NCBI GenBank assembly: GCA_964654205.1
Contig: CAZZHR010000002.1
Coordinates: 1,800 to 65,799 of the forward strand
Length of the DNA stretch: 64,000 nucleotides
DNA from: an uncultured Candidatus Saccharibacteria bacterium
Lineage (GTDB): Bacteria > Patescibacteriota > Minisyncoccia > Phycocordibacterales > UBA2100
Direction of reading: 5' to 3'
Below, in pieces: positions 37,947-51,953 of this stretch (the first letter of the stretch is position 1; each line of letters starts with the position of its first letter). Made by a program: the position numbers and the translations under genes. The notes beneath the pieces are model-generated. The model saw only the letters and a list, made by a program, of their open reading frames with translations, had not been told where the DNA came from and searched no databases.

Positions 37947-37992
37947 GCACATACACCAACCCCCCACGACCGTTTGGAGTTGGTGTATGTGC
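37947..37992 (-). promoter_or_regulatory. Element A: ATACACCAA-N6-ACGGTCGT-N6-TTGGTGTAT, 11 nt past the stop of PaaX-like gene 1
   Basis: Same element and orientation as 38567-38612. Confidence 0.7.
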
Positions 37993-38002
37993 AGATCGAG
38001 CC

Positions 38003-38572
38003 CTAAGCCAAACCGAAGTCGCGCTTGAGAGAAGCTTCCCCCTCAAGCTCTTGCACGACCATGTATCGCATCTTGTAGCCGATACGCCACTCAGATTTCA
38101 AAAGTGCGACTAAGTCTTCACAATTGTACGGAAACACCCAGACGCTGTCCTGAAGTCGCACGAAACCAAGGTGCCTGAGCATTTCCCGGATGCGATCGCG
38201 CAGTCGACGGTTCTTCTCTGGAATGTCAAAAATAAGCACTCGCCACTTCCCGTCCCATTTTTTCTGATTCCGTGCCTGAAGGTCTGCCACACTTTGCAAC
38301 CTCTCGAGCTCGCGCGCACCGAGCGCTGTCAGGCGCAAGCCCGCTGCCTCCCGCCGAGCATACCCCTTTTCGACGAGTCGCCGGTATGTGCGCCTCATAC
38401 TCTCGCCCTGTCGCGGACCAGGGACTAGTCCGAGTCGCTTCAGACCTTGCACTGCATTTGGAGCCGCAATAGCAATCGCGAGCAGTCCGCCTAATTTGAG
38501 CGTCTCGAGTGCGACCTGTTGAATTTTCTCTTTTCTCGAACGCGATGCACCTCTCTCCTCCAATCGCCCCAT
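38003..38572 (-). CDS. PaaX-family-like transcriptional regulator, paralog 1 (190 aa)
   Basis: GLRLTALGARELERLQ...WDGKWRVLIFDIPEKNRRLRDRIREMLRHLGFVRLQDSVWVFPY parallels PaaX (GLRLTRRAESK..WDGKW) and has a Cas2/VapD-like core. Start set at MGRLEERG by alignment to paralog 2. Confidence 0.55.
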   Translation of the reverse strand: MGRLEERGASRSRKEKIQQVALETLKLGGLLAIAIAAPNAVQGLKRLGLVPGPRQGESMRRTYRRLVEKGYARREAAGLRLTALGARELERLQSVADLQARNQKKWDGKWRVLIFDIPEKNRRLRDRIREMLRHLGFVRLQDSVWVFPYNCEDLVALLKSEWRIGYKMRYMVVQELEGEASLKRDFGLA

Positions 38573-38612
38573 ACACCAAGTATATACGACCGTGGGGTAT
38601 TGGTGTATTGGG
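38567..38612 (-). promoter_or_regulatory. Element B: the same 37-bp inverted-repeat element, overlapping the start codon and -10 region of PaaX-like gene 1
   Basis: cccCATacaccaagtatatacgaccgtggggtattggtgtat; TATACT box 6 nt before the ATG suggests a leaderless transcript. Confidence 0.65.
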
Positions 38613-42754: not shown

Positions 42755-44848
42755 TTAGTTGTTAAATGCGCCGCTCGCCATAAGTTTCTTTCGCTCCTGC
42801 TTCAATTTTTCTGAGAAGACTGCACTCAAGATTCCGGCAAACCAACCAAACAGCGACTGCCTCTTTTCGGCGTCAGACTCACGGTCTGCGAAAAATGCAT
42901 CAGCTCGTTCGTCTGGCGTTGCGTCCGCCCATTTTTTTCCCATCTTATTTTCCAGTGACACTTGAAAAGTCTCATCCTTGGCTTTTAATTTCTTAATATC
43001 CTCATCGAGTGCCGTATTTAGGTTCTTTGTATTCGTTTCGAACTCACCGAACGTGGCTTCCCCGCGCTCGCCCAGAGCTGGTATGGGCTTCTTACCATAA
43101 GCTTCCTGGACGATACGGGCTCGGAATACGCTGTCATTGGAGAGTGTGCCTGCGAGAACTTTTCCTATTTCAATCCTATTGTGCGCCAAGGAGTTGATTG
43201 CATTGTTCGAGCGAATCGTGCTGTCCCGCAACAGTACGCGCCTGAAAAAGCCGGGTTTGCGAATGTTTCGCGCTGTTCTTGCGTCAAGCATGGACCAATT
43301 GAGGTCTTCCGGCCCGACTCCTATGAGACCCGTGAAGTGCCTGGTGCGTTCCTTGAGTTTCGCATAGCTTGCGTTCATTCGAATATCGAGGTTCGATCTG
43401 TGCGAGAGTACAATTGCCCTCACGTCGTCGGAGCTGGCAAGCGCAAATGTGTACGACAGCGCAGTTTTCATAGCCTCGAGTCTACGAGTTGGATTCAGGT
43501 TTGTCGCGAGAACAGCAAAAGCTTTGTCGTTGGCAATCATGAACTCGACGTCAGCCGCCGTGAGTCCATCGCGCACCTCATCAAGCAGGCGCATGCGATG
43601 ATCGAACTCTTTGAGGAGCTCCTGTAGCTCCGCATAGTCGTCCTCTTCCATCGTAGACGCGTCTTGCATAGAAGCCATGTGCCGCACACTGAGCCCTTCT
43701 GGGCCGTGCGCTTTGACGTATTCGCCGAAAAGCTCCTGCTTCTTCTTGTCCTTCAGGATGACATCCATTGTCGAACCCTGATTCGTATATGTTATCGATT
43801 GCGCCCGCACGAGCGGCAAGGCTGAATATCTGCGTTTTACGTGCTTCGGGACGACGCCGACCACCCTTCCCTTTTTCGGCAATGGTTGGGGCATAGCGCC
43901 ACGACCACTCTTCTTTCCGCTCCCATTCTCTGAATCGTCGCCCCCATCACCGCCGTCACCGCCGCTTGGCGGTTCCGGACCGTCCGACTTCTCCGTCCCA
44001 TTCCTGGACTCGTTTTTGGCTTTCCGGTCACGCAGCATCTGTATTTGTTCCGAAGTGTACAGTTTCCCAGGTGTATCTGGATGGTAATAGTAGCGCCCGC
44101 CCCAAACGCCCGCGAGATGCTCAAATTTGGTAAGGTCGAGATCCTTATTTCTCTCCGCGAGCTTCTTTAAAAGCTCCTCAACCTCCTTTTGCTTCGCCGG
44201 ATCGTTGGCGTTGTCTGCGAAGCCACCGTCGTTGGTAGCGTTACCGTCTAACTCCGAGGCCGATTCTTTTCCTTTGCTGCTCGCCTCATACACTTGAAGC
44301 GCTTCACTGATGCCTTTTATTTCGATAGGTTTCGTTGCTGCACCGACGTAATCCTCCAGTCGCTTGAAATGTTTATCACCGATTTTTGCCTTTACCGCCT
44401 CGAGTCGCGCATGAATATTTTTCTTTGCCTCTTCGAGCTGTTCTGGTTTAGCATATTCGCTGCTCGCGCTAACCTCCTCGGTCACAGCATTAACTCCCTC
44501 CAGCTCAGCAATCTCTGCGTTGGACACACGAACAAGTTCCATCTGAGGTACGTCATCTCTCAATGCATCCCCCATCTCTGTCCTTATAATCTGATCCTCT
44601 TCCGCTTCGTTCGGCTTCCGTTTGGTACCATCCATCTCAACGATAAGAAATCCGCTCGCCCCCGCCTCGTACTTCAATTTAGACGTTCGCGCTTCAGCAG
44701 AAGCTTCATGCCGCCGTGAATCTGGTGGCGCATCCGTCTTGGGCTCAAACGAGGACGAACTTTGGTCTGGGAGACTAATGATGCTGTCGTCTTCGACAGG
44801 TTTTTTACGACGCTCGAGTGCGCGCTTCGCCCGCTCTTCAAATGCCAT
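42755..44848 (-). CDS. Large hypothetical cytoplasmic protein (697 aa); low GC; no recognisable domain
   Basis: Long intact ORF at about 45-50% GC in a 60% GC genome; acidic/basic low-complexity linkers (GGDGGDGGDD). Confidence 0.6.
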   Translation of the reverse strand: MAFEERAKRALERRKKPVEDDSIISLPDQSSSSFEPKTDAPPDSRRHEASAEARTSKLKYEAGASGFLIVEMDGTKRKPNEAEEDQIIRTEMGDALRDDVPQMELVRVSNAEIAELEGVNAVTEEVSASSEYAKPEQLEEAKKNIHARLEAVKAKIGDKHFKRLEDYVGAATKPIEIKGISEALQVYEASSKGKESASELDGNATNDGGFADNANDPAKQKEVEELLKKLAERNKDLDLTKFEHLAGVWGGRYYYHPDTPGKLYTSEQIQMLRDRKAKNESRNGTEKSDGPEPPSGGDGGDGGDDSENGSGKKSGRGAMPQPLPKKGRVVGVVPKHVKRRYSALPLVRAQSITYTNQGSTMDVILKDKKKQELFGEYVKAHGPEGLSVRHMASMQDASTMEEDDYAELQELLKEFDHRMRLLDEVRDGLTAADVEFMIANDKAFAVLATNLNPTRRLEAMKTALSYTFALASSDDVRAIVLSHRSNLDIRMNASYAKLKERTRHFTGLIGVGPEDLNWSMLDARTARNIRKPGFFRRVLLRDSTIRSNNAINSLAHNRIEIGKVLAGTLSNDSVFRARIVQEAYGKKPIPALGERGEATFGEFETNTKNLNTALDEDIKKLKAKDETFQVSLENKMGKKWADATPDERADAFFADRESDAEKRQSLFGWFAGILSAVFSEKLKQERKKLMASGAFNN

Positions 44849-44896
44849 GCGTGAATTTTATCACGATGTAACGCCATTATTTCAATGTACGTGCAT

Positions 44897-44927
44897 AGAA
44901 AAAGGGCGAGCCGAAGCTCGCCCTTTC
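44897..44927 (-). terminator. Intrinsic terminator
   Basis: aaaaaGGGCGAGCcgaaGCTCGCCCtttcc. Confidence 0.8.
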
Positions 44928-44949
44928 CGTCGCACTAGGGCGACAAAGA

Positions 44950-45774
44950 TCAGGTCTTGGCACCGATGGAGATGCCTTTCCCGTTGTAAGCCGGGTTGCC
45001 CTTGGCAGCTTCCGCAGCAGCGGCGGCGGCGATCTTCTGTCGCTCCTCCATGTCTTCCATGAAGAGGCGTTCGAAGAACTTGTCGTAGCCTGTCGCGTCC
45101 TGTTCGAGGAGCTGTGTCTTGCCGCCGATCAGGCGGCACGACTTGCCGTTGACATCGCGCACGATGACGACGGCGCCCTCAGGGATACGCCAGAAGTCGA
45201 AGTTGACCGGGGAGTACGGAAGTCCACGGATGTTCTTGCCGTGGACACTCCCGATCTTCTCGGCCGCAGCCGTGCCGAAATCCGCTTTCTCTTCGCGGCC
45301 TTCGGCGATCTTGAACGCGCCGGACTTCTTGTCGAAGTTGTACGAGCCGTGAGGCTTCACTTCGCCCTTGCTCGCGATGTCCATGTAGTCGCCCATCATG
45401 CCCTGCGGACCGAACTGGAAGCCAGTCCGAATGAGCACGATCCAGTCGTTGCCATCCTTGTGGGAGGCGAGGACCTTGCGGGTCTTGCCGTCGCCGATGT
45501 CCTGATCGATCGCGCTCGCGCGGATGATCTTGTTGCGCTGGTCGAACAGCGGGCGATCGGTCAGCAGTGCCGGGACGACTGATGCGCCCTTGCTGAGCTT
45601 CCCGTTGCGTCCGATGCCGCCGACCACCACGGACGGCAGCGCGATTTTCGCGACGGAATCCGGCAACAGGTCAGACCTGATACCGGTGGTCAGACCCTGA
45701 CCGCGGGGCATGAAGAAGTACAAGTTGGCGTCCTTCGCGGTGCCAACCTGGTGTTCAGCGGACTGACTGCGCAT
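44950..45774 (-). CDS. Hypothetical protein (274 aa)
   Basis: Intact ORF with high GC3; flanked by intrinsic terminators; no signal peptide; no assignable domain. Confidence 0.55.
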   Translation of the reverse strand: MRSQSAEHQVGTAKDANLYFFMPRGQGLTTGIRSDLLPDSVAKIALPSVVVGGIGRNGKLSKGASVVPALLTDRPLFDQRNKIIRASAIDQDIGDGKTRKVLASHKDGNDWIVLIRTGFQFGPQGMMGDYMDIASKGEVKPHGSYNFDKKSGAFKIAEGREEKADFGTAAAEKIGSVHGKNIRGLPYSPVNFDFWRIPEGAVVIVRDVNGKSCRLIGGKTQLLEQDATGYDKFFERLFMEDMEERQKIAAAAAAEAAKGNPAYNGKGISIGAKT

Positions 45775-45895
45775 TTGGTGTGCTCCTTAAGCTGCGCTTC
45801 TGGTGAGATCTCCGAGGAGACCAGAGCCCTATGCTCCACCCTTGATGGTATCATATTATCTAGAAATGTCAATATATGGCTCAAGTACCTGTCCA

Positions 45896-45931
45896 ATATA
45901 AAAGACAAAGCGCCGCGGTTGCCCGCGGCGC
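45896..45931 (-). terminator. Intrinsic terminator
   Basis: GCGCCGCGGttgcCCGCGGCGC followed by TTTGTCTTTTAT on the minus strand. Confidence 0.8.
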
Positions 45932-45958
45932 TGAAAGATAGCTTGCCTTGCGAATAGT

Positions 45959-46546
45959 TCACCTGTTGCGCGGCAGCCTCTGCTCCGTACGTTCACCTCT
46001 CGGTGCCGACTTCAGCATCTCCATCAGGAGCCCGTTTACGAAGTAGTTCGTGATGAGGATGGCGAAGACATTGACGCCGACGAGATGCCACTCGACTACG
46101 CCATAGCGTATCGGGCTGCCTCCCGGCTCGTTGCGATAGTACGCCCATGCCACGAGCCATATCACGACTGCGAGAATCGTCCCTATGTGCGGCAGCTGTG
46201 CAGTACGCACCTGCCTGCGCGCTTGTGGCGCACTTATCGAGCCGCGCCCCTCCATCTGTCCCATAATCTCGCGCGCTTCGAGAAGCACGTAGAGGAATAG
46301 GAACGCGACCCAGTAGAAGCCGATCCAGAGCTTCGTTACCGTCGAGAACCCACTCAAAGAAAGGAGCGGGATGCCGAAGGTAATCAGAACCATGAGAATC
46401 GGCGCATTCCAGCGCTCCGCCCAGATGAACGGCGGATGTCCAGCGGGGTCACGCATAAGCCCTACCGCAATTTTCCAGTTGGCCCACTTGTCGGGATTTC
46501 GCGGGACTGTTGGTTCCTGACCAATCTCGGTCATATGTCGCTCCAT
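45959..46546 (-). CDS. Membrane protein (4 TM), unknown function
   Basis: Hydrophobic helices ILMVLITFGIPLL, LWIGFYWVAFLFLYVLL, ILAVVIWLVAWAYY, VFAILITNYFVNGLL. Confidence 0.55.
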   Translation of the reverse strand: MERHMTEIGQEPTVPRNPDKWANWKIAVGLMRDPAGHPPFIWAERWNAPILMVLITFGIPLLSLSGFSTVTKLWIGFYWVAFLFLYVLLEAREIMGQMEGRGSISAPQARRQVRTAQLPHIGTILAVVIWLVAWAYYRNEPGGSPIRYGVVEWHLVGVNVFAILITNYFVNGLLMEMLKSAPRGERTEQRLPRNR

Positions 46547-48056: not shown

Positions 48057-49031
48057 ATGTCAGACCCGCACCAACCGCCCGCGCAAAAAACGCACAAACC
48101 CTCCGGTACGACGATGGTCGCCAACGTTCTCGCCATCGTAGGCTCCATCATTCTCGTAATCATCATTATTTGGGGACTCGTCCACCTCCTTTCTCTCTCG
48201 GGCGGATTCTTCTCTTCCCTCTTCGGCGGCAAAGACCGTGACATCGTAGTGGACGCGCCGTCTGAAGTTACTTCCGGGGAAGCGTTCAAGATTTCCTGGA
48301 TGCATGAGACGGACGAGGGCGGCATGTACGCGCTCCTCTATCCGTGCACCGAGGGCTTGCGCTTCTCCATCCTCGCGCCGAACGATGATGACATTACGAT
48401 CCCCTGTGGCGCGGCATTTGCCATCGGAACCGCGACGACCAGCGCGAGCCTCACGCCCGTGCTGATTGGCGCCTCGACGGTGAGCACGCCGCTGAGTGTG
48501 CTCTTCATCCCGAGCTCTACATCGAGCGCGCCCGTAGAAGGCACCGTGACACTCTCCGTCGAGACTGTGTCTACACCGACGCAGCCTGAACCAGAAGAGC
48601 CCGCTCCAACGCCGAAACCGACTACCCCTGTTGCGCCGAGCACCCCTGGCGACCTCGCGGTTACCATCACGTCGGTCTCTGTAGACCAGTTCGGCAACGG
48701 CACCGTCGTCTTCAACATATCCAACATCGGCTCCGGCGCGACCGGTGGGTACTACTTCACCGCACAGCTCCCGACTCGCCAGCCATACACATACATCTCT
48801 CCGACCCAGGCATCGCTTTCCCCGGGCGCGTACATCGTAAACACGCTTCGCTTCACGCAGGCGATGGCCGGCAATGTAACTGTGGTCGCCGACCCGGCCA
48901 ATGTGGTGCGCGAGAGCAACGAGAACAACAACACCGCCGTGCAATACATCTCCGGCCAATACCCGTACCAGTACACATACCCGCAACAGCCATCGAGCTA
49001 CAACATCTACAACTATCCGTACACCTACTAA
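48057..49031 (+). CDS. Cell-surface protein: N-terminal signal anchor, Thr/Pro-rich linker, CARDB-like domain, Tyr-rich C-terminus
   Basis: DLAVTITSVSVDQFGNGTVVFNISNIGSGATGGYYFTAQLP...VTVVADPANVVRESNENNNT matches the CARDB pattern; the ending QYPYQYTYPQQPSSYNIYNYPYTY echoes the YP repeats of 38747-40069. Confidence 0.65.
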   Translation: MSDPHQPPAQKTHKPSGTTMVANVLAIVGSIILVIIIIWGLVHLLSLSGGFFSSLFGGKDRDIVVDAPSEVTSGEAFKISWMHETDEGGMYALLYPCTEGLRFSILAPNDDDITIPCGAAFAIGTATTSASLTPVLIGASTVSTPLSVLFIPSSTSSAPVEGTVTLSVETVSTPTQPEPEEPAPTPKPTTPVAPSTPGDLAVTITSVSVDQFGNGTVVFNISNIGSGATGGYYFTAQLPTRQPYTYISPTQASLSPGAYIVNTLRFTQAMAGNVTVVADPANVVRESNENNNTAVQYISGQYPYQYTYPQQPSSYNIYNYPYTY

Positions 49032-49130
49032 GGGTCAGCGCGGATGAAATCAAAAGGGCGGCCGAATGGCTACCCTTTTGATTGCACACCTTGCCACAAT
49101 ATGCGCGCTTTGTGTCGGTGCTATCTGTGC

Positions 49131-49159
49131 GTTATAGCGAACGTATAGCATTTACATCA
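49131..49159 (-). promoter_or_regulatory. Element C, downstream copy: TATAGCGAA-N3-ATAGCAT, overlapping the stop of PaaX-like gene 2
   Basis: gttatagcgaacgtatagcatttaca; same orientation as 49736-49764. Confidence 0.65.
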
Positions 49160-49729
49160 TTTCCCTTTCAGACCGAAATGTTTGCGTAAATCCTCATCAC
49201 CCTCTATCTCGTCAACAATCATATAGCGGACTGCCCTTCCGATGTGTAGATCAGCCTTCACGAGTGAAACAAAATCTTCAACATCGTAGGGGAAAACCCA
49301 TACGCTATCCTGCAACATAAGAAAGCCGATGTGTCGGAGAGTCCTACGGATCTTATCCCTATCTGCTTTCCGATGTTCGGGGATATCAAAGATGAGCACA
49401 CGCCACCTGCCGTCCCAACGACGCGGCACGTCCCCTCGCATCAATGCCTCATGTAGATCCAGCTCTTTCCGGCCTCGGTCAGTCAATCGAAGCCCTTTCT
49501 CCGTGCTACGAATGTGTCCAGAGGCGATTAATCGCTTTCGCGCTCGATTAATCGTTGAGGAATCTTGCGGAGACCTCTCAAGGAGTCCCAATTTGTACAA
49601 ACTTTGGACCGCATTCGGTGCTGCCAAAACAAATCCTGTGATTGCAGCCACTTTGACCGCCGCGAGTAATGCGAACTTGATATCTCTTTTCCGCTTACGG
49701 ATCCTCCCTCGTATTTCTACCTCGCCCAT
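49157..49729 (-). CDS. PaaX-family-like transcriptional regulator, paralog 2 (190 aa)
   Basis: APNAVQ..GLRLTDRGRKELDLHE..RWDGRWRVLIFDIPEHRKADRDKIRRTLRHIGFLMLQDSVWVFPY; collinear with 38003-38572. Confidence 0.55.
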   Translation of the reverse strand: MGEVEIRGRIRKRKRDIKFALLAAVKVAAITGFVLAAPNAVQSLYKLGLLERSPQDSSTINRARKRLIASGHIRSTEKGLRLTDRGRKELDLHEALMRGDVPRRWDGRWRVLIFDIPEHRKADRDKIRRTLRHIGFLMLQDSVWVFPYDVEDFVSLVKADLHIGRAVRYMIVDEIEGDEDLRKHFGLKGK

Positions 49730-49735
49730 ACTATT

Positions 49736-49764
49736 TATTCGCTATAGCGAAATGATAGCATGAC
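49736..49764 (-). promoter_or_regulatory. Element C, upstream copy with a perfect 14-bp palindrome ttcgctatagcgaa, 8 nt upstream of the paralog 2 start
   Basis: tattcgctatagcgaaatgatagcatgac. Confidence 0.65.
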
Positions 49765-49826
49765 AGTCTGAAACATACGTCTAACGTATTGTCTACGTAT
49801 GTCGACGGAGCAAAACAGGGCGCACG

Positions 49827-49895
49827 TTAGATGTCGAGTGTCGCTTCTTTAGCGTGGCTCTGAATGAATTCCGCCAGAAGGCGGATTACGCGCAC
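49827..49895 (-). pseudogene. In-frame tandem duplicate of the gyrB C-terminal tail (…AEFIQSHAKEATLDI*), recoded at synonymous sites
   Basis: Reading through the gyrB TGA gives VRVIRLLAEFIQSHAKEATLDI then TAA at 49827-49829. It encodes the same 13 aa as the genuine gyrB end; about 28/42 nt are identical, with differences confined to wobble positions. Confidence 0.7.
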
Positions 49896-51953
49896 TCATA
49901 TATCCAACGTCGCCTCTTTGGCGTGAGACTGAATAAAAGACTTTCTTGCTGGGACGTCGGTGCCCATGAGCATGTCGAATATCATGTCGGCTTCCTGGGC
50001 GTCCTCGATCGCCACTTGCTTGAGGATGCGGCGTGCCGGATCCATTGTGGTCTCCCAGAGTTCTTCGCTGTTCATCTCGCCGAGACCCTTGTAGCGCTGC
50101 ACGGAGATTTTCGCAGTCTTTTTCTTTTTCGCTGCCTCACCGGCGGCTTCTTCTTGCTCGCTCTCCTCTTCTTCGATGAGTTCCTCGGCCTCTATCGGCA
50201 TCTCTTCACCGACGAGCGAGATGCGCTCTTCGTCGGAGTACGCGTACGCGATTTCCTTGCCCTTCTTTATCTTGAAGAGTGGCGGCTGGGCGATATAGAG
50301 AAAGCCACCTTCTATCACCGGCTTAAAGTGGCGGTACATGAGCGTGAGGAGGAGCGTGCGGATATGCGCGCCGTCCACGTCGGCATCGGTCGCGATGATT
50401 ATTTTGTGGTAGCGGAGCTTCTCGATGTTGAAGATGTCGCCAATCGCGGTGCCAAGCGCAACGACGAGATTCTTTATCTGCTCGCTCGCGAGCATCTTGT
50501 CGAGGCGGGCGCGCTCGATGTTGAGTATTTTGCCGCGCAAAGGGAGAATGGCCTGGATACGTCTGTCGCGGCCCATTTTCGCCGTGCCTCCCGCCGAGTC
50601 TCCCTCGACGATGAAGAGCTCAGACTCCTCCGCGCTTTTGCTCTGGCAGTCGGCGAGCTTGCCAGGCAGTGTCATACCGTCGAGCGCTCCTTTGCGTAAG
50701 ATGGAGTCTTTCGCAGCCTTCGCGGCCTTGCGCGCTTTCATCGCGAGCGTGATTTTCCCGATGATTGCTCGCGCCTCATCCGGGTTCTCTTCCAAGAAGG
50801 TCGAGAATGCCTCGCCGAAGATTGCTTCGGTCGCACCGCGCGCCTCCACGCTCCCGAGCTTCCCCTTGGTCTGACCTTCAAACTGTATCTCACGAAGCTT
50901 TACGGAAACCACTGCCGTGAGGCCTTCGAGCACGTCGTCGCCGGTGAAGCTCTCGCTGCCGCCATTCTTGCTGTTGATCGAGCGTGTGAGCGCCGTCTTG
51001 AAGCCGGTCACATGCGTGCCGCCTTCAGCGTTGTAGATATTGTTGGCAAATGCGGAGATGCGCGAGGTGATGTCGTCGACGTACTGAAGTGCGACTTCGA
51101 CCTGCACGCCGTCTTGCTCCTTTTCGACATAAAAGATCGTCTTGTGTATCGGCTCGAGGTGATGATTTTGGAAAGAAACGAGCGAGCGGAGCCCACCTTC
51201 GAAGTAAAAGGTCATCGACGGCGCATCGAGCCCGAGTTCTCTCAGGTAAAAAACACCCTCGTCGTCCACCGTACCCGCGTTGCGTAAGTCGATGATTGAA
51301 ATGCGCAGCCCCTTCACCAGGTACGCTTGCTGGCGCATGTGCGAGACGATGGTGTCCCAATTGAATGTGGTATCGGGAAAGATGCTTTTATCGGGCTGGA
51401 ACGTGATGATGGTGCCGTGCAGCTTAGAGCTGCCGACTTTCTTGACCTTGCTCACCGCTTTGCCGCCGTCCTTGTATTCTTGTACGTGTTCGCCGCCGTC
51501 GCGGTGCACGACAGCGCGCACTTTCGTGGAAAGCGCATTGACCACCGACGCGCCGACACCGTGGAGGCCGCCCGAGACTTTGTAGCCCTCCCCTCCGAAT
51601 TTGCCGCCCGCGTGGAGCGTGGTCATGATTGTCTCGAGCGCTGAGACCTTGGTCTTCGGATGTATATCTACTGGGATTCCGCGGCCATTGTCGGCGACGC
51701 GCACGCGATTGCCCGGAAGCAGCGCTATCTCGATATCATCAGCAAAGCCGCCCATCGCTTCGTCGCGCGAGTTGTCGAAGATCTCCCACACAAGGTGGTG
51801 GAGACCTGAAGTGCCGGTCGTACCGATGTACATGCCCGGCCTCCGGCGTACCGCCTCGAGACCTTCGAGCACTGTGATGTCGGCTGCCCCGTACGAAGAC
51901 GCGCCCTTTTTCTGGGCGGTTTCTGCGGCCTTTTTTGCCTTAGTTTCAGCCAT
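49896..51953 (-). CDS. gyrB: DNA gyrase subunit B (685 aa)
   Basis: GHKL ATPase N-terminus, TOPRIM EGDSAGG and PLRGKILN; C-terminus ...SFIQSHAKEATLDI. Confidence 0.95.
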   Translation of the reverse strand: MAETKAKKAAETAQKKGASSYGAADITVLEGLEAVRRRPGMYIGTTGTSGLHHLVWEIFDNSRDEAMGGFADDIEIALLPGNRVRVADNGRGIPVDIHPKTKVSALETIMTTLHAGGKFGGEGYKVSGGLHGVGASVVNALSTKVRAVVHRDGGEHVQEYKDGGKAVSKVKKVGSSKLHGTIITFQPDKSIFPDTTFNWDTIVSHMRQQAYLVKGLRISIIDLRNAGTVDDEGVFYLRELGLDAPSMTFYFEGGLRSLVSFQNHHLEPIHKTIFYVEKEQDGVQVEVALQYVDDITSRISAFANNIYNAEGGTHVTGFKTALTRSINSKNGGSESFTGDDVLEGLTAVVSVKLREIQFEGQTKGKLGSVEARGATEAIFGEAFSTFLEENPDEARAIIGKITLAMKARKAAKAAKDSILRKGALDGMTLPGKLADCQSKSAEESELFIVEGDSAGGTAKMGRDRRIQAILPLRGKILNIERARLDKMLASEQIKNLVVALGTAIGDIFNIEKLRYHKIIIATDADVDGAHIRTLLLTLMYRHFKPVIEGGFLYIAQPPLFKIKKGKEIAYAYSDEERISLVGEEMPIEAEELIEEEESEQEEAAGEAAKKKKTAKISVQRYKGLGEMNSEELWETTMDPARRILKQVAIEDAQEADMIFDMLMGTDVPARKSFIQSHAKEATLDI

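Follow-up and report, generated by a model that had tools for sequence, protein, structure and literature searches.

The window analyzed here, a stretch of 64,000 nucleotides from an uncultured Kaiserbacterium, carries a gyrB gene whose product matches all four GyrB domains in Pfam (HATPase_c, DNA_gyraseB, Toprim, and DNA_gyraseB_C). It is followed on the same strand by a second copy of the gyrB end and by a PaaX-like regulator gene lying between two palindromes, beyond which a gene for a CARDB-domain membrane protein is found in convergent orientation (Table 1). The gyrB frame ends ...SFIQSHAKEATLDI-TGA (in its longer form, ...PARKSFIQSHAKEATLDI before the TGA), and the same frame beyond the spacer reads EFIQSHAKEATLDI-TAA (23 codons past the gyrB TGA, VRVIRLLAEFIQSHAKEATLDI and then TAA at 49827-49829). 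Here, we refer to these two ends as copy 1 and copy 2, respectively.

Table 1. Features at the 3' end of gyrB (positions are those of the window).
Feature	Position	Strand	Remarks
gyrB CDS	49896..51953	minus	685 aa; TGA stop at 49896-49898
Tail copy 1, functional last 13 gyrB codons (FIQSHAKEATLDI)	49899..49937	minus	
Spacer of 27 nt between the tails (GTGCGCGTAATCCGCCTTCTGGCGGAA)	49869..49895	minus	
Tail copy 2, 13 codons and TAA	49827..49868	minus	Read as a noncoding orthologous gyrB 3' end
GTGCGC	49820..49825	minus	One base past the copy 2 stop
Intergenic stretch	49763..49826	minus	Natively follows the gyrB stop in regulator-bearing genomes
Inverted repeat ACATACGT-N14-ACGTATGT	49773-49802		Inside the intergenic stretch
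Upstream palindrome CATGCTATcatTTCGCTATAGCGAAtaaATAGTATG	49727..49762	minus	Overlaps the regulator ATG; TGnTATnAT-like -10 box
PaaX_M/Cas2-like-fold regulator gene	49157..49729	minus	190 aa; PF20803
Downstream degenerate copy of the upstream palindrome	49119..49153	minus	A few nt past the regulator stop
Bidirectional terminator hairpin	49045..49086	.	Common to the convergent regulator and CARDB genes
CARDB-domain membrane protein gene	48057..49031	+	Convergent with gyrB; conserved neighbor

These readings confirm the recoded, in-frame second tail noticed in a preliminary description of the locus. The peptide is the same, and all 11 nucleotide differences are synonymous, including a TCT/AGC serine switch and a TTG/CTC leucine pair. 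The count of 28 identical nucleotides of 42 given there was correct (28/39 across the 13 common codons); 13 residues and the stop are repeated, the fourteenth residue being different (S versus E). The longest identical run between the tails is 6 nt. In copy 2, homology to gyrB begins abruptly at TTC, and the GAA that precedes it fits none of the S/T/A codons of the relatives. The 13-residue match is not a chance event; searching 5-residue fragments of the tail in six frames of 1.29 Mb of related DNA gave ca. 7 isolated matches. The in-frame position of copy 2 is a 1-in-3 coincidence, to which we gave little weight.

The small hairpin reported between the two tails is indeed present (ccgccagaaggcgg at 49871-49884), with a 6-bp stem when the flanking T-A pair is included (stem-loop, 49870-49885). 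Its folding energy was -11.6 kcal/mol (z, -2.05), and it is not followed by a T run. In relatives, a hairpin lies 5 to 25 nt beyond the gyrB stop, and we read the spacer stem-loop as the terminator stem of the gyrB unit ending in copy 1, with the T run lost at the joint. A scan for terminator and promoter consensus gave no match and no terminator-like site with a T run, the spacer with its hairpin, searched for as a dispersed repeat, occurred only once in the window, and an Rfam scan of 48800-50200 gave one sub-threshold chance match only. Given that gyrB now lacks a terminator with a T run, its transcription probably continues into the regulator gene. The junction GGCGG/AATTC matches no natural gyrB context, GAA together with the hairpin fits no gyrB, and we infer an illegitimate joint at ca. 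49869-49871 (GGCGG/AA/TTC). The hexamer found past the copy 2 stop also follows the copy 1 stop directly (49890-49895). It was present within 12 nt of the gyrB stop in 0 of 91 relatives and occurs 96 times on both strands of the 64 kb, giving a post hoc chance of ca. 0.005. The paired hexamers may be a shared flank or, like AA/GAA, a candidate microhomology at the joint.

The tail peptide is invariant across Kaiserbacteria, and orthologous tails of different species (42 Kaiserbacteria tails) were identical at 30.2 ± 2.5 of 39 nt. Since the value for the two copies matches this level between species, copy 2 has the appearance of a gyrB end from another lineage and not of a local duplication, in agreement with the earlier proposal of a recombination remnant as opposed to a recent slip duplication. 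Copy 2 was closest to the tails of loci L084 (36/39), L090, and L002 (35/39), although these affinities are no guide to the direction of transfer, given that 35 to 36/39 is the expected maximum of 42 random comparisons. Among the gyrB 3' flanks of ca. 90 relatives, we found neither a second gyrB tail nor an in-frame tail-like extension of GyrB, and their GyrB proteins all terminate at the same ...LDI residue. Far from being common to all relatives, the duplicated tail is therefore specific to this lineage. An exact match to this GyrB is not on record, a search with its C terminus gave nothing above 87%, and GTDB representatives reached ca. 90% GyrB identity at best. Neither a donor nor a pre-event genome was recovered, the closest GyrB identities being about 87 to 90%. 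Within gyrB, a sliding-window and maximum-z breakpoint test gave a permutation p of 0.16 (with references at least 15% diverged and low power), and trees of the N and C halves did not resolve. The lack of a significant breakpoint indicates that a replaced gyrB end, if real, would be short or of a lineage at an equal distance from the references.

The regulator was recognized by PF20803, the PaaX central Cas2-like domain (E value, 8e-22; 77.6 bits; cut-off, 24), and is devoid of the PaaX C-terminal domain. Its scores were below the cut-offs of TIGR02277 (PaaX; 43 bits versus 264.6) and TIGR01573 (Cas2; 23.7 bits versus 24.5), and a literature search for PaaX together with Cas2-like retrieved no paper. 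This is the only gene here that the closest relatives, L002 to L004, lack (it is also missing from L006), and the extra DNA with respect to them consists only of copy 2 and this 0.6-kb gene. The regulator occupies the same position after gyrB in ca. 17 other Kaiserbacteria loci, scattered over the gyrB tree. Its own tree was broadly congruent with that of gyrB (the window grouping with L083), its identity to orthologues was as usual at this GyrB distance, and its GC3 deficit (-0.23) agreed with the family mean with respect to the cognate gyrB (-0.20 ± 0.06). A foreign origin by composition was rejected, since the orthologues all have a GC3 ca. 0.20 below that of their own gyrB. The gene thus looks native by its tree, identity, and GC3, and it appears to be an old, largely vertically inherited neighbor of gyrB in this clade. 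Cognate palindromes bracket these regulator genes: the upstream one, presumably the promoter/operator of the gene, is conserved in L005, L010, L083, L084, and others, and the downstream one has a single mismatch to the pattern, with 0 expected by chance.

In L005, L010, L083 to L096, L136, and L138, the native order is gyrB tail, short intergenic region, palindrome, PaaX-like gene, palindrome, terminator, and CARDB gene, and the window reproduces it from copy 2 onward. The strong terminator shared by the convergent genes (-26.5 kcal/mol; z, -4.3) is homologous to the gyrB/CARDB terminator of L002. The CARDB protein is L002-like over its whole length, including the C terminus, while it is about 40 to 45% identical to its counterparts in most of the regulator-bearing loci compared (30 to 54% over all of them). 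Along with a small ORF, a sortase, and an LbH protein, it is collinear with L002 to L004 down to ca. 46557. In L084, a remnant GCGACGCTTGATATCTAA (ATLDI-stop) lies ca. 15 to 20 nt beyond the regulator cassette and is a second, independent scar of the same polarity, derived from the resident gyrB end. An ATLDI found 135 nt past the gyrB stop in L018 is possibly due to chance (about 0.05) and was left out of the scar count.

The preliminary description had placed the double tail next to an accessory island and suggested that an incoming element supplied its own mimic of the gyrB tail. A recoded duplicate of a gene 3' end is the classical signature of site-specific integrative elements, which carry a replacement tail in the attachment site, and the G+C content does decrease at 49 to 50 kb. 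However, Pfam, NCBIfam, and PADLOC gave no integrase, recombinase, or transposase in the ORFs of the 38- to 57-kb region, the tails are 27 nt apart with the regulator beyond both instead of bracketing an element, and the longest stretch that could serve them as an identical crossover core is the 6-nt run. The genes downstream represent conserved synteny, only the regulator being variable, and a low G+C is typical of the regulator family. Viral contigs contained neither the tail pattern nor the regulator gene, and the joints of the window and L084 scars are at different positions. The closest tRNA genes were found at 606 and 57199, and a defense-system search gave nothing beyond a weak Cas2-fold similarity. 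The island is not supported, and an integrative element at the gyrB 3' end is very improbable. Similarly improbable is a local tandem duplication of ca. 70 nt (tail, stop, and GTGCGC) within the genome followed by divergence. Although the units are 69 to 70 nt apart and both are followed by the hexamer, not seen after the gyrB stop of any relative, 11 synonymous and no nonsynonymous differences would need long selection on an untranslated copy, the serine switch is unreachable by synonymous single steps, and so old a copy should be common to the relatives, which lack it.

Copy 2 might also be functional, through readthrough of the TGA into a GyrB with a doubled tail or as a free tail peptide from a 22-codon ORF starting with GTG, and be maintained by purifying selection. 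It is in frame and intact with its own stop, the GTG comes directly after the TGA, and no nonsynonymous decay is seen. Yet the synonymous-only pattern is fully explained by the separate evolution of both ends as orthologous genes, and 39 nt would be too short for visible decay unless neutral divergence after the event exceeded about 5 to 10%. The in-frame position is the coincidence mentioned above, all relatives lack the feature, and no purine-rich ribosome-binding sequence precedes the GTG. The large conserved ORFs stay open when read with the standard code, so that TGA acts as a stop here, as the preliminary description had stated. Readthrough, which it had considered less likely, is not supported, with an extension in this lineage only, and we regard a functional copy 2 as more improbable still than the two preceding alternatives. 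Last in probability comes an assembly chimera of two co-occurring strains. The source is a metagenome-assembled genome, but two Logan contigs from separate runs (SRR15237806 and SRR15237804; loci L081 and L082) show 100% identity over both tails and the junction, so that the double tail is present in three assemblies, counting that of the window, and the joint is no repeat of the sort that assembly could collapse.

The double tail is thus likely to be the scar of an illegitimate, and probably homology-facilitated, recombination in one direction or the other. Two gyrB ends from two Kaiserbacteria lineages appear to have been juxtaposed, with copy 2 as a presumably inert scar. As for the direction, we tentatively favor a replacement anchored in gyrB that left the resident tail behind, gyrB being the only well-conserved sequence nearby able to act as a homologous anchor. 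DNA of another Kaiserbacterium would have paired with the resident chromosome via the conserved gyrB and replaced its end, bringing its own stop and 27 nt of 3' flank with the terminator stem. The illegitimate joint of the incoming free end would have fallen within the resident gyrB, 13 codons ahead of its stop, through homology-facilitated illegitimate recombination (HFIR), leaving downstream the last 13 resident codons, the stop, the intergenic region, and the native PaaX-like gene. Left beyond the imported stop, copy 2 would not be translated, and its peptide would look conserved because both tails evolved separately as working gyrB ends and the event was too recent for decay. The native arrangement from copy 2 onward, the native appearance of the regulator, and the L084 remnant, placed as expected from a gyrB-anchored import, count in favor of this replacement, and the CARDB comparison makes an anchor downstream implausible. 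On the other side are the nonsignificant breakpoint test and unresolved half trees, the lack of a donor or pre-event genome, and tail affinities within the range of chance. Moreover, a divergence of ca. 20 to 28% in nucleotides between the partners would make homologous anchoring inefficient, the absence of the regulator from L002 to L004 and L006 would require extra losses, and the hexamer after both stops is not predicted by the model.

The opposite direction is possible, though we give it less credence. Here, a resident without the regulator, similar to L002 to L004, would have gained between two hairpins a fragment of a regulator-bearing Kaiserbacterium, from 13 codons before the donor gyrB stop up to and including the palindrome behind the PaaX-like gene, with copy 2 hitchhiking. 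Both flanks (pheS, pheT, and gyrB on one side and CARDB, sortase, and LbH on the other) are closest to the regulator-less L002 to L004, which have a gyrB hairpin and a CARDB hairpin with nothing between them. In addition, the regulator is scattered on the gyrB tree, L084 documents gains, and no breakpoint was detected in gyrB. However, with CARDB L002-like to the last codon and the terminator as well, this direction needs two illegitimate joints or an anchor in unconserved sequence, and purely illegitimate integration is rarer than HFIR (PMC3240628). Neither the tree position of the regulator, nor its identity relative to the GyrB distance, nor its GC3 offset gives any sign of foreignness. A more specific proposal, that the regulator and its two cognate palindromes form a discrete exchangeable cassette with the gyrB 3' end as its habitual landing and exchange site in Kaiserbacteria, would make the double tail and the L084 remnant footprints of cassette traffic and not of generic recombination. 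We consider it unlikely; if true, it would describe, for CPR bacteria, a small regulatory module that is mobile or semi-mobile and has palindromes as its limits.

The double tail is ordinary in kind, a recombination scar between related bacteria and not the edge of a mobile island, which corrects the attractive but wrong reading of an island boundary with an attachment-site mimic. It provides a clean footprint, at the level of sequence, of an exchange of DNA by distinct species of Kaiserbacteria, uncultivable CPR bacteria whose recombination mechanisms are known by inference only, and it illustrates that conserved housekeeping genes such as gyrB can be junction points for the turnover of an adjacent variable gene. 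It also advises caution, since duplicates with a conserved peptide and recoded DNA beside conserved genes can be neutral scars derived from orthologs. In annotation, copy 2 should be called neither a gene nor an extension of gyrB.

Prophages e14 and phage 21 integrate in the 3' end of icd in Escherichia coli and supply a recoded replacement end. As in that system, the second 3' end found here differs mainly at synonymous sites, but the icd duplicates lie on either side of an element with an integrase and have an identical crossover core in common, whereas here the copies are adjacent, with no integrase and no core. HFIR involves one homologous and one illegitimate end, with 3 to 10 bp of microhomology (PMC3240628), and has been described in the natural transformation of Streptococcus pneumoniae, Acinetobacter baylyi, and Pseudomonas stutzeri (summarized in PMC3240628). 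The similarities to the present case are foreign DNA joined beside a conserved gene able to act as an anchor, one nonhomologous joint, and a small insertion coupled to the loss or displacement of resident sequence. In contrast, our case was deduced from a scar left in nature, in an uncultured CPR bacterium, and the partners are ca. 20 to 28% diverged, above most experiments. Closest in outcome to the replacement that we favor are the rhs loci and type VI secretion system (T6SS) effector-immunity arrays (PMC5361080; Jackson et al. 2009 as cited there), in which a conserved gene acquires a new 3' end from incoming DNA and the old end, pushed downstream, persists untranslated, these displaced 3' ends being attributed to HFIR (PMC5361080). 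There, however, the displaced ends encode different toxins and their turnover is adaptive, while here both ends encode the same housekeeping peptide and the event looks selectively neutral.

Directly beyond its TGA stop and a 27-nt spacer, the gyrB gene (C terminus ...GTDVPARKSFIQSHAKEATLDI) is followed by a second tail, copy 2, which in the gyrB frame encodes FIQSHAKEATLDI-stop, the same peptide as the last 13 codons of the gene (copy 1). The second tail, its frame, its TAA end and the hairpin between the two tails had been recognized in the preliminary description, and all were found (see the table). Across the 13 codons common to both tails, 28 of 39 nt are identical (the 28/42 reported earlier holds if the nonmatching preceding codon is included), and all 11 differences are synonymous, including TCT/AGC (Ser) and TTG/CTC (Leu). 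An assembly artefact or chimera was excluded, since both tails and the joint were 100% identical in two independent Logan contigs from separate sequencing runs (SRR15237806 and SRR15237804), sister sequences of the window.

Features around the 3' end of gyrB and of the second PaaX/Cas2-like paralogue
Feature	Position	Strand	Remarks
gyrB ORF, 685 aa	49896-51953	minus	all four GyrB Pfam domains; TGA at 49896-49898
27-nt spacer GTGCGCGTAATCCGCCTTCTGGCGGAA	directly 3' of gyrB TGA	minus	
Spacer stem-loop	49870-49885		6-bp stem, -11.6 kcal/mol, z -2.05, no T run behind
Copy 2	49827-49868	minus	TTC ATT CAG AGC CAC GCT AAA GAA GCG ACA CTC GAC ATC TAA
GTGCGC after gyrB stop	49890-49895		offset 0
GTGCGC after copy 2 stop	49820-49825		offset +1
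Inverted repeat ACATACGT-N14-ACGTATGT	49773-49802		intergenic, copy 2 to regulator palindrome; 9-bp stem in RNA fold
Regulator palindromes	49727-49762, 49119-49153		gyrB-linked; core CGCTATAGCG
Regulator, 190-aa ORF	49157-49729		between copy 2 and CARDB terminator; PaaX central Cas2-like domain PF20803, 8e-22
Strong terminator	49045-49086	both	bidirectional; resembles that of L002
Second paralogue	38003-~38575	minus	palindromes 38570-38608, 37950-37988

The best GyrB matches were metagenome-assembled Kaiserbacteria (Paceibacterota, CPR), with ca. 90% identity to the closest GTDB representatives (loci L002 to L004). Within Kaiserbacteria, the peptide FIQSHAKEATLDI is essentially invariant and its DNA variable, with a pairwise identity among 42 gyrB tails of 30.2 ± 2.5 of 39 nt. 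The two copies are therefore as divergent as gyrB tails taken from separate species. They are separately evolved working gene ends that were united later, which explains the recoding without selection on copy 2. The joint between these orthologous ends (GGCGG/AA/TTC) has no natural gyrB counterpart and would be illegitimate, formed between DNA of two lineages; the suspicion of a recombination remnant was thus correct. Copy 2 still lacks any nonsynonymous change or frameshift and has kept its stop, so the event is probably recent; a 39-nt stretch would be expected to escape such damage by chance up to a neutral divergence of no more than about 5 to 10%.

Full and partial tails were sought in all six frames of 80 gyrB loci from GTDB species and of another 80 metagenome loci (together 1.29 Mb), and the double tail proved lineage specific: rather than being shared by all relatives, a second full tail was confined, among these loci, to the window and the two contigs sister to it. 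Locus L084, with an intact gyrB tail at 741-791, carries GCGACGCTTGATATCTAA (ATLDI-stop) at 1529-1546, ca. 15 to 20 nt past the downstream palindrome of its regulator, apparently a second, independent scar in which an incoming gyrB-plus-regulator segment displaced the resident tail. L018 has a less convincing candidate remnant at ca. 6834, 135 nt past the gyrB stop, where ATLDI is not followed by a stop. Tandem heptanucleotide repeats occupy the same position in different species, the first 30 to 60 nt directly 3' of gyrB, as in L013 (TAGTTTC)n, L024 (AGCTTTC)n, L008 and L009 (CAGGTTT)n, and L023.

Local tandem duplication cannot yield 11 synonymous and no nonsynonymous changes in untranslated DNA, and the earlier dismissal of a recent slip duplication stands, given this pattern and the ortholog-level divergence. 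Neither TGA readthrough nor a 22-codon ORF beginning with the GTG behind that stop is needed to explain copy 2, and both are improbable; relatives give them no support, and no ribosome-binding site is visible. The preliminary description had preferred an incoming element with its own gyrB-tail mimic, next to an accessory island. Taken as a site-specific element whose attachment site mimics the gyrB tail, this model fails three defining tests: there is no integrase, the copies flank nothing, and they share no identical core. The 38-57 kb interval yielded no gene for an integrase, a transposase or defence, tRNA genes are distant from the locus, and neither the tail pattern nor the regulator gene was found on viral contigs. 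The supposed island is also wrong. Relatives (L001 to L004 and many others) share the order pheS, pheT, gyrB, convergent CARDB-domain membrane protein, small ORF, sortase and LbH-repeat protein, and collinearity between the window and L004 extends from 49031, where the CARDB gene stops, to ca. 46557, the CARDB protein being L002-like over its entire length, including the C terminus. Beyond 46.5 kb, synteny with L004 stops and ORFs that lack homologues and have lower G+C follow; three conserved genes and over 3 kb separate this point from gyrB. At 42755-46546, ORFs of 697, 274 and 195 aa had no Pfam, NCBIfam or PADLOC matches. Apart from one weak case, they also have no equivalent at the loci of the relatives; G+C falls to 0.51-0.55 at 42-45 kb. 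The variable region, if the window has one, begins there.

The regulator, which scores under the curated cutoffs for PaaX proper and for Cas2, is absent in L002 to L004. It lies directly 3' of gyrB, ahead of the CARDB gene, in L005, L010, L083 to L091, L093 to L096, L136 and L138. Many Kaiserbacteria thus natively have the arrangement that begins with copy 2 here: a tail, a short intergenic region, the palindromic promoter/operator and the regulator. The putative promoter/operator can be aligned with its L005 and L010 counterparts. The regulator tree broadly mirrors that of gyrB (pairs L087/L095, L089/L093 and L136/L138 recur; the window groups with L083), and identity to orthologues is as GyrB distance predicts. 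Its GC3 is 0.50 versus 0.73 for gyrB, an offset of -0.23 compared to a mean of -0.20 ± 0.06 in 12 genomes; the low G+C is a family trait. By tree, identity and GC3 offset, nothing marks it as recently foreign.

A recombination scar, in whichever direction, is probable. We tentatively and only modestly favour replacement of the gyrB end over its converse. Incoming DNA would have paired via gyrB and replaced the end of the gene, bringing its own stop and a 27-nt flank with a terminator stem, to be joined 13 codons ahead of the resident stop; the resident tail would have remained downstream, together with the intergenic region and the native regulator. Homology-facilitated illegitimate recombination (HFIR) needs a homologous anchor (PMC3240628), and gyrB is the only well-conserved nearby sequence able to provide it, the CARDB side being resident-type to its stop. 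The native look of the regulator and the polarity of the L084 scar, as expected of gyrB-anchored events, argue in the same direction. Against it, no breakpoint was detected inside gyrB (P = 0.16), the regulator is missing from the closest relatives, no donor was found in databases, and tail affinities (copy 2 with L084, 36/39, and L002, 35/39; copy 1 with L022, 35/39) do not exceed the maximum expected over 42 comparisons for either copy. The converse, in which an L002-L004-like resident imported a fragment starting 13 codons before the donor's gyrB stop and carrying the regulator, is only somewhat less likely.

In the stretch 49869-49898, the joint removed whatever lay behind the small hairpin, leaving gyrB without a hairpin-plus-T-run terminator before the regulator; the next strong one lies beyond it. 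Therefore, gyrB and regulator may be cotranscribed, in this lineage only. GTGCGC follows both gyrB-type stops (post hoc chance of ca. 0.005, from its frequency in the window) and was found within 12 nt of the gyrB stop in 0 of 91 relatives. The pair may be residual flank homology of the partners, GC-rich joint microhomology or chance; parsed as microhomology, a 69- to 70-nt patch (hairpin plus foreign tail) may lie between 6-bp direct repeats. The main conclusion is unchanged.

The 190-aa PaaX/Cas2-like genes are each tightly flanked by two copies of a ca. 30- to 40-bp palindrome, CAT..CTAT..(core)..ATAG..ATG, seen in the window pairs and in L005, L010 and L083 to L164. That of the second paralogue differs (CATACACCAA..ACGACCGT..TTGGTGTATG), and L005 has a third, solo palindrome at ca. 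8124. The upstream palindrome overlaps the start codon and bears a -10-like box; the downstream one begins a few nucleotides past the stop. In 25 of the 40 family members with sufficient flank, at least 22 of 30 positions agree between the upstream and downstream sequences (shuffled control, 14.5). The palindromes may serve as cognate operators or mark the ends of a cassette.

The double tail is a real, lineage-specific, ordinary recombination scar of an already known kind. Prophages replace the 3' end of icd, a process that it resembles only superficially. It works like the products of HFIR. It is also akin to "C-terminal displacement" at rhs and T6SS effector loci, where 3' ends are left orphaned (PMC5361080), but here both ends encode the same housekeeping peptide, and the exchange therefore looks neutral.
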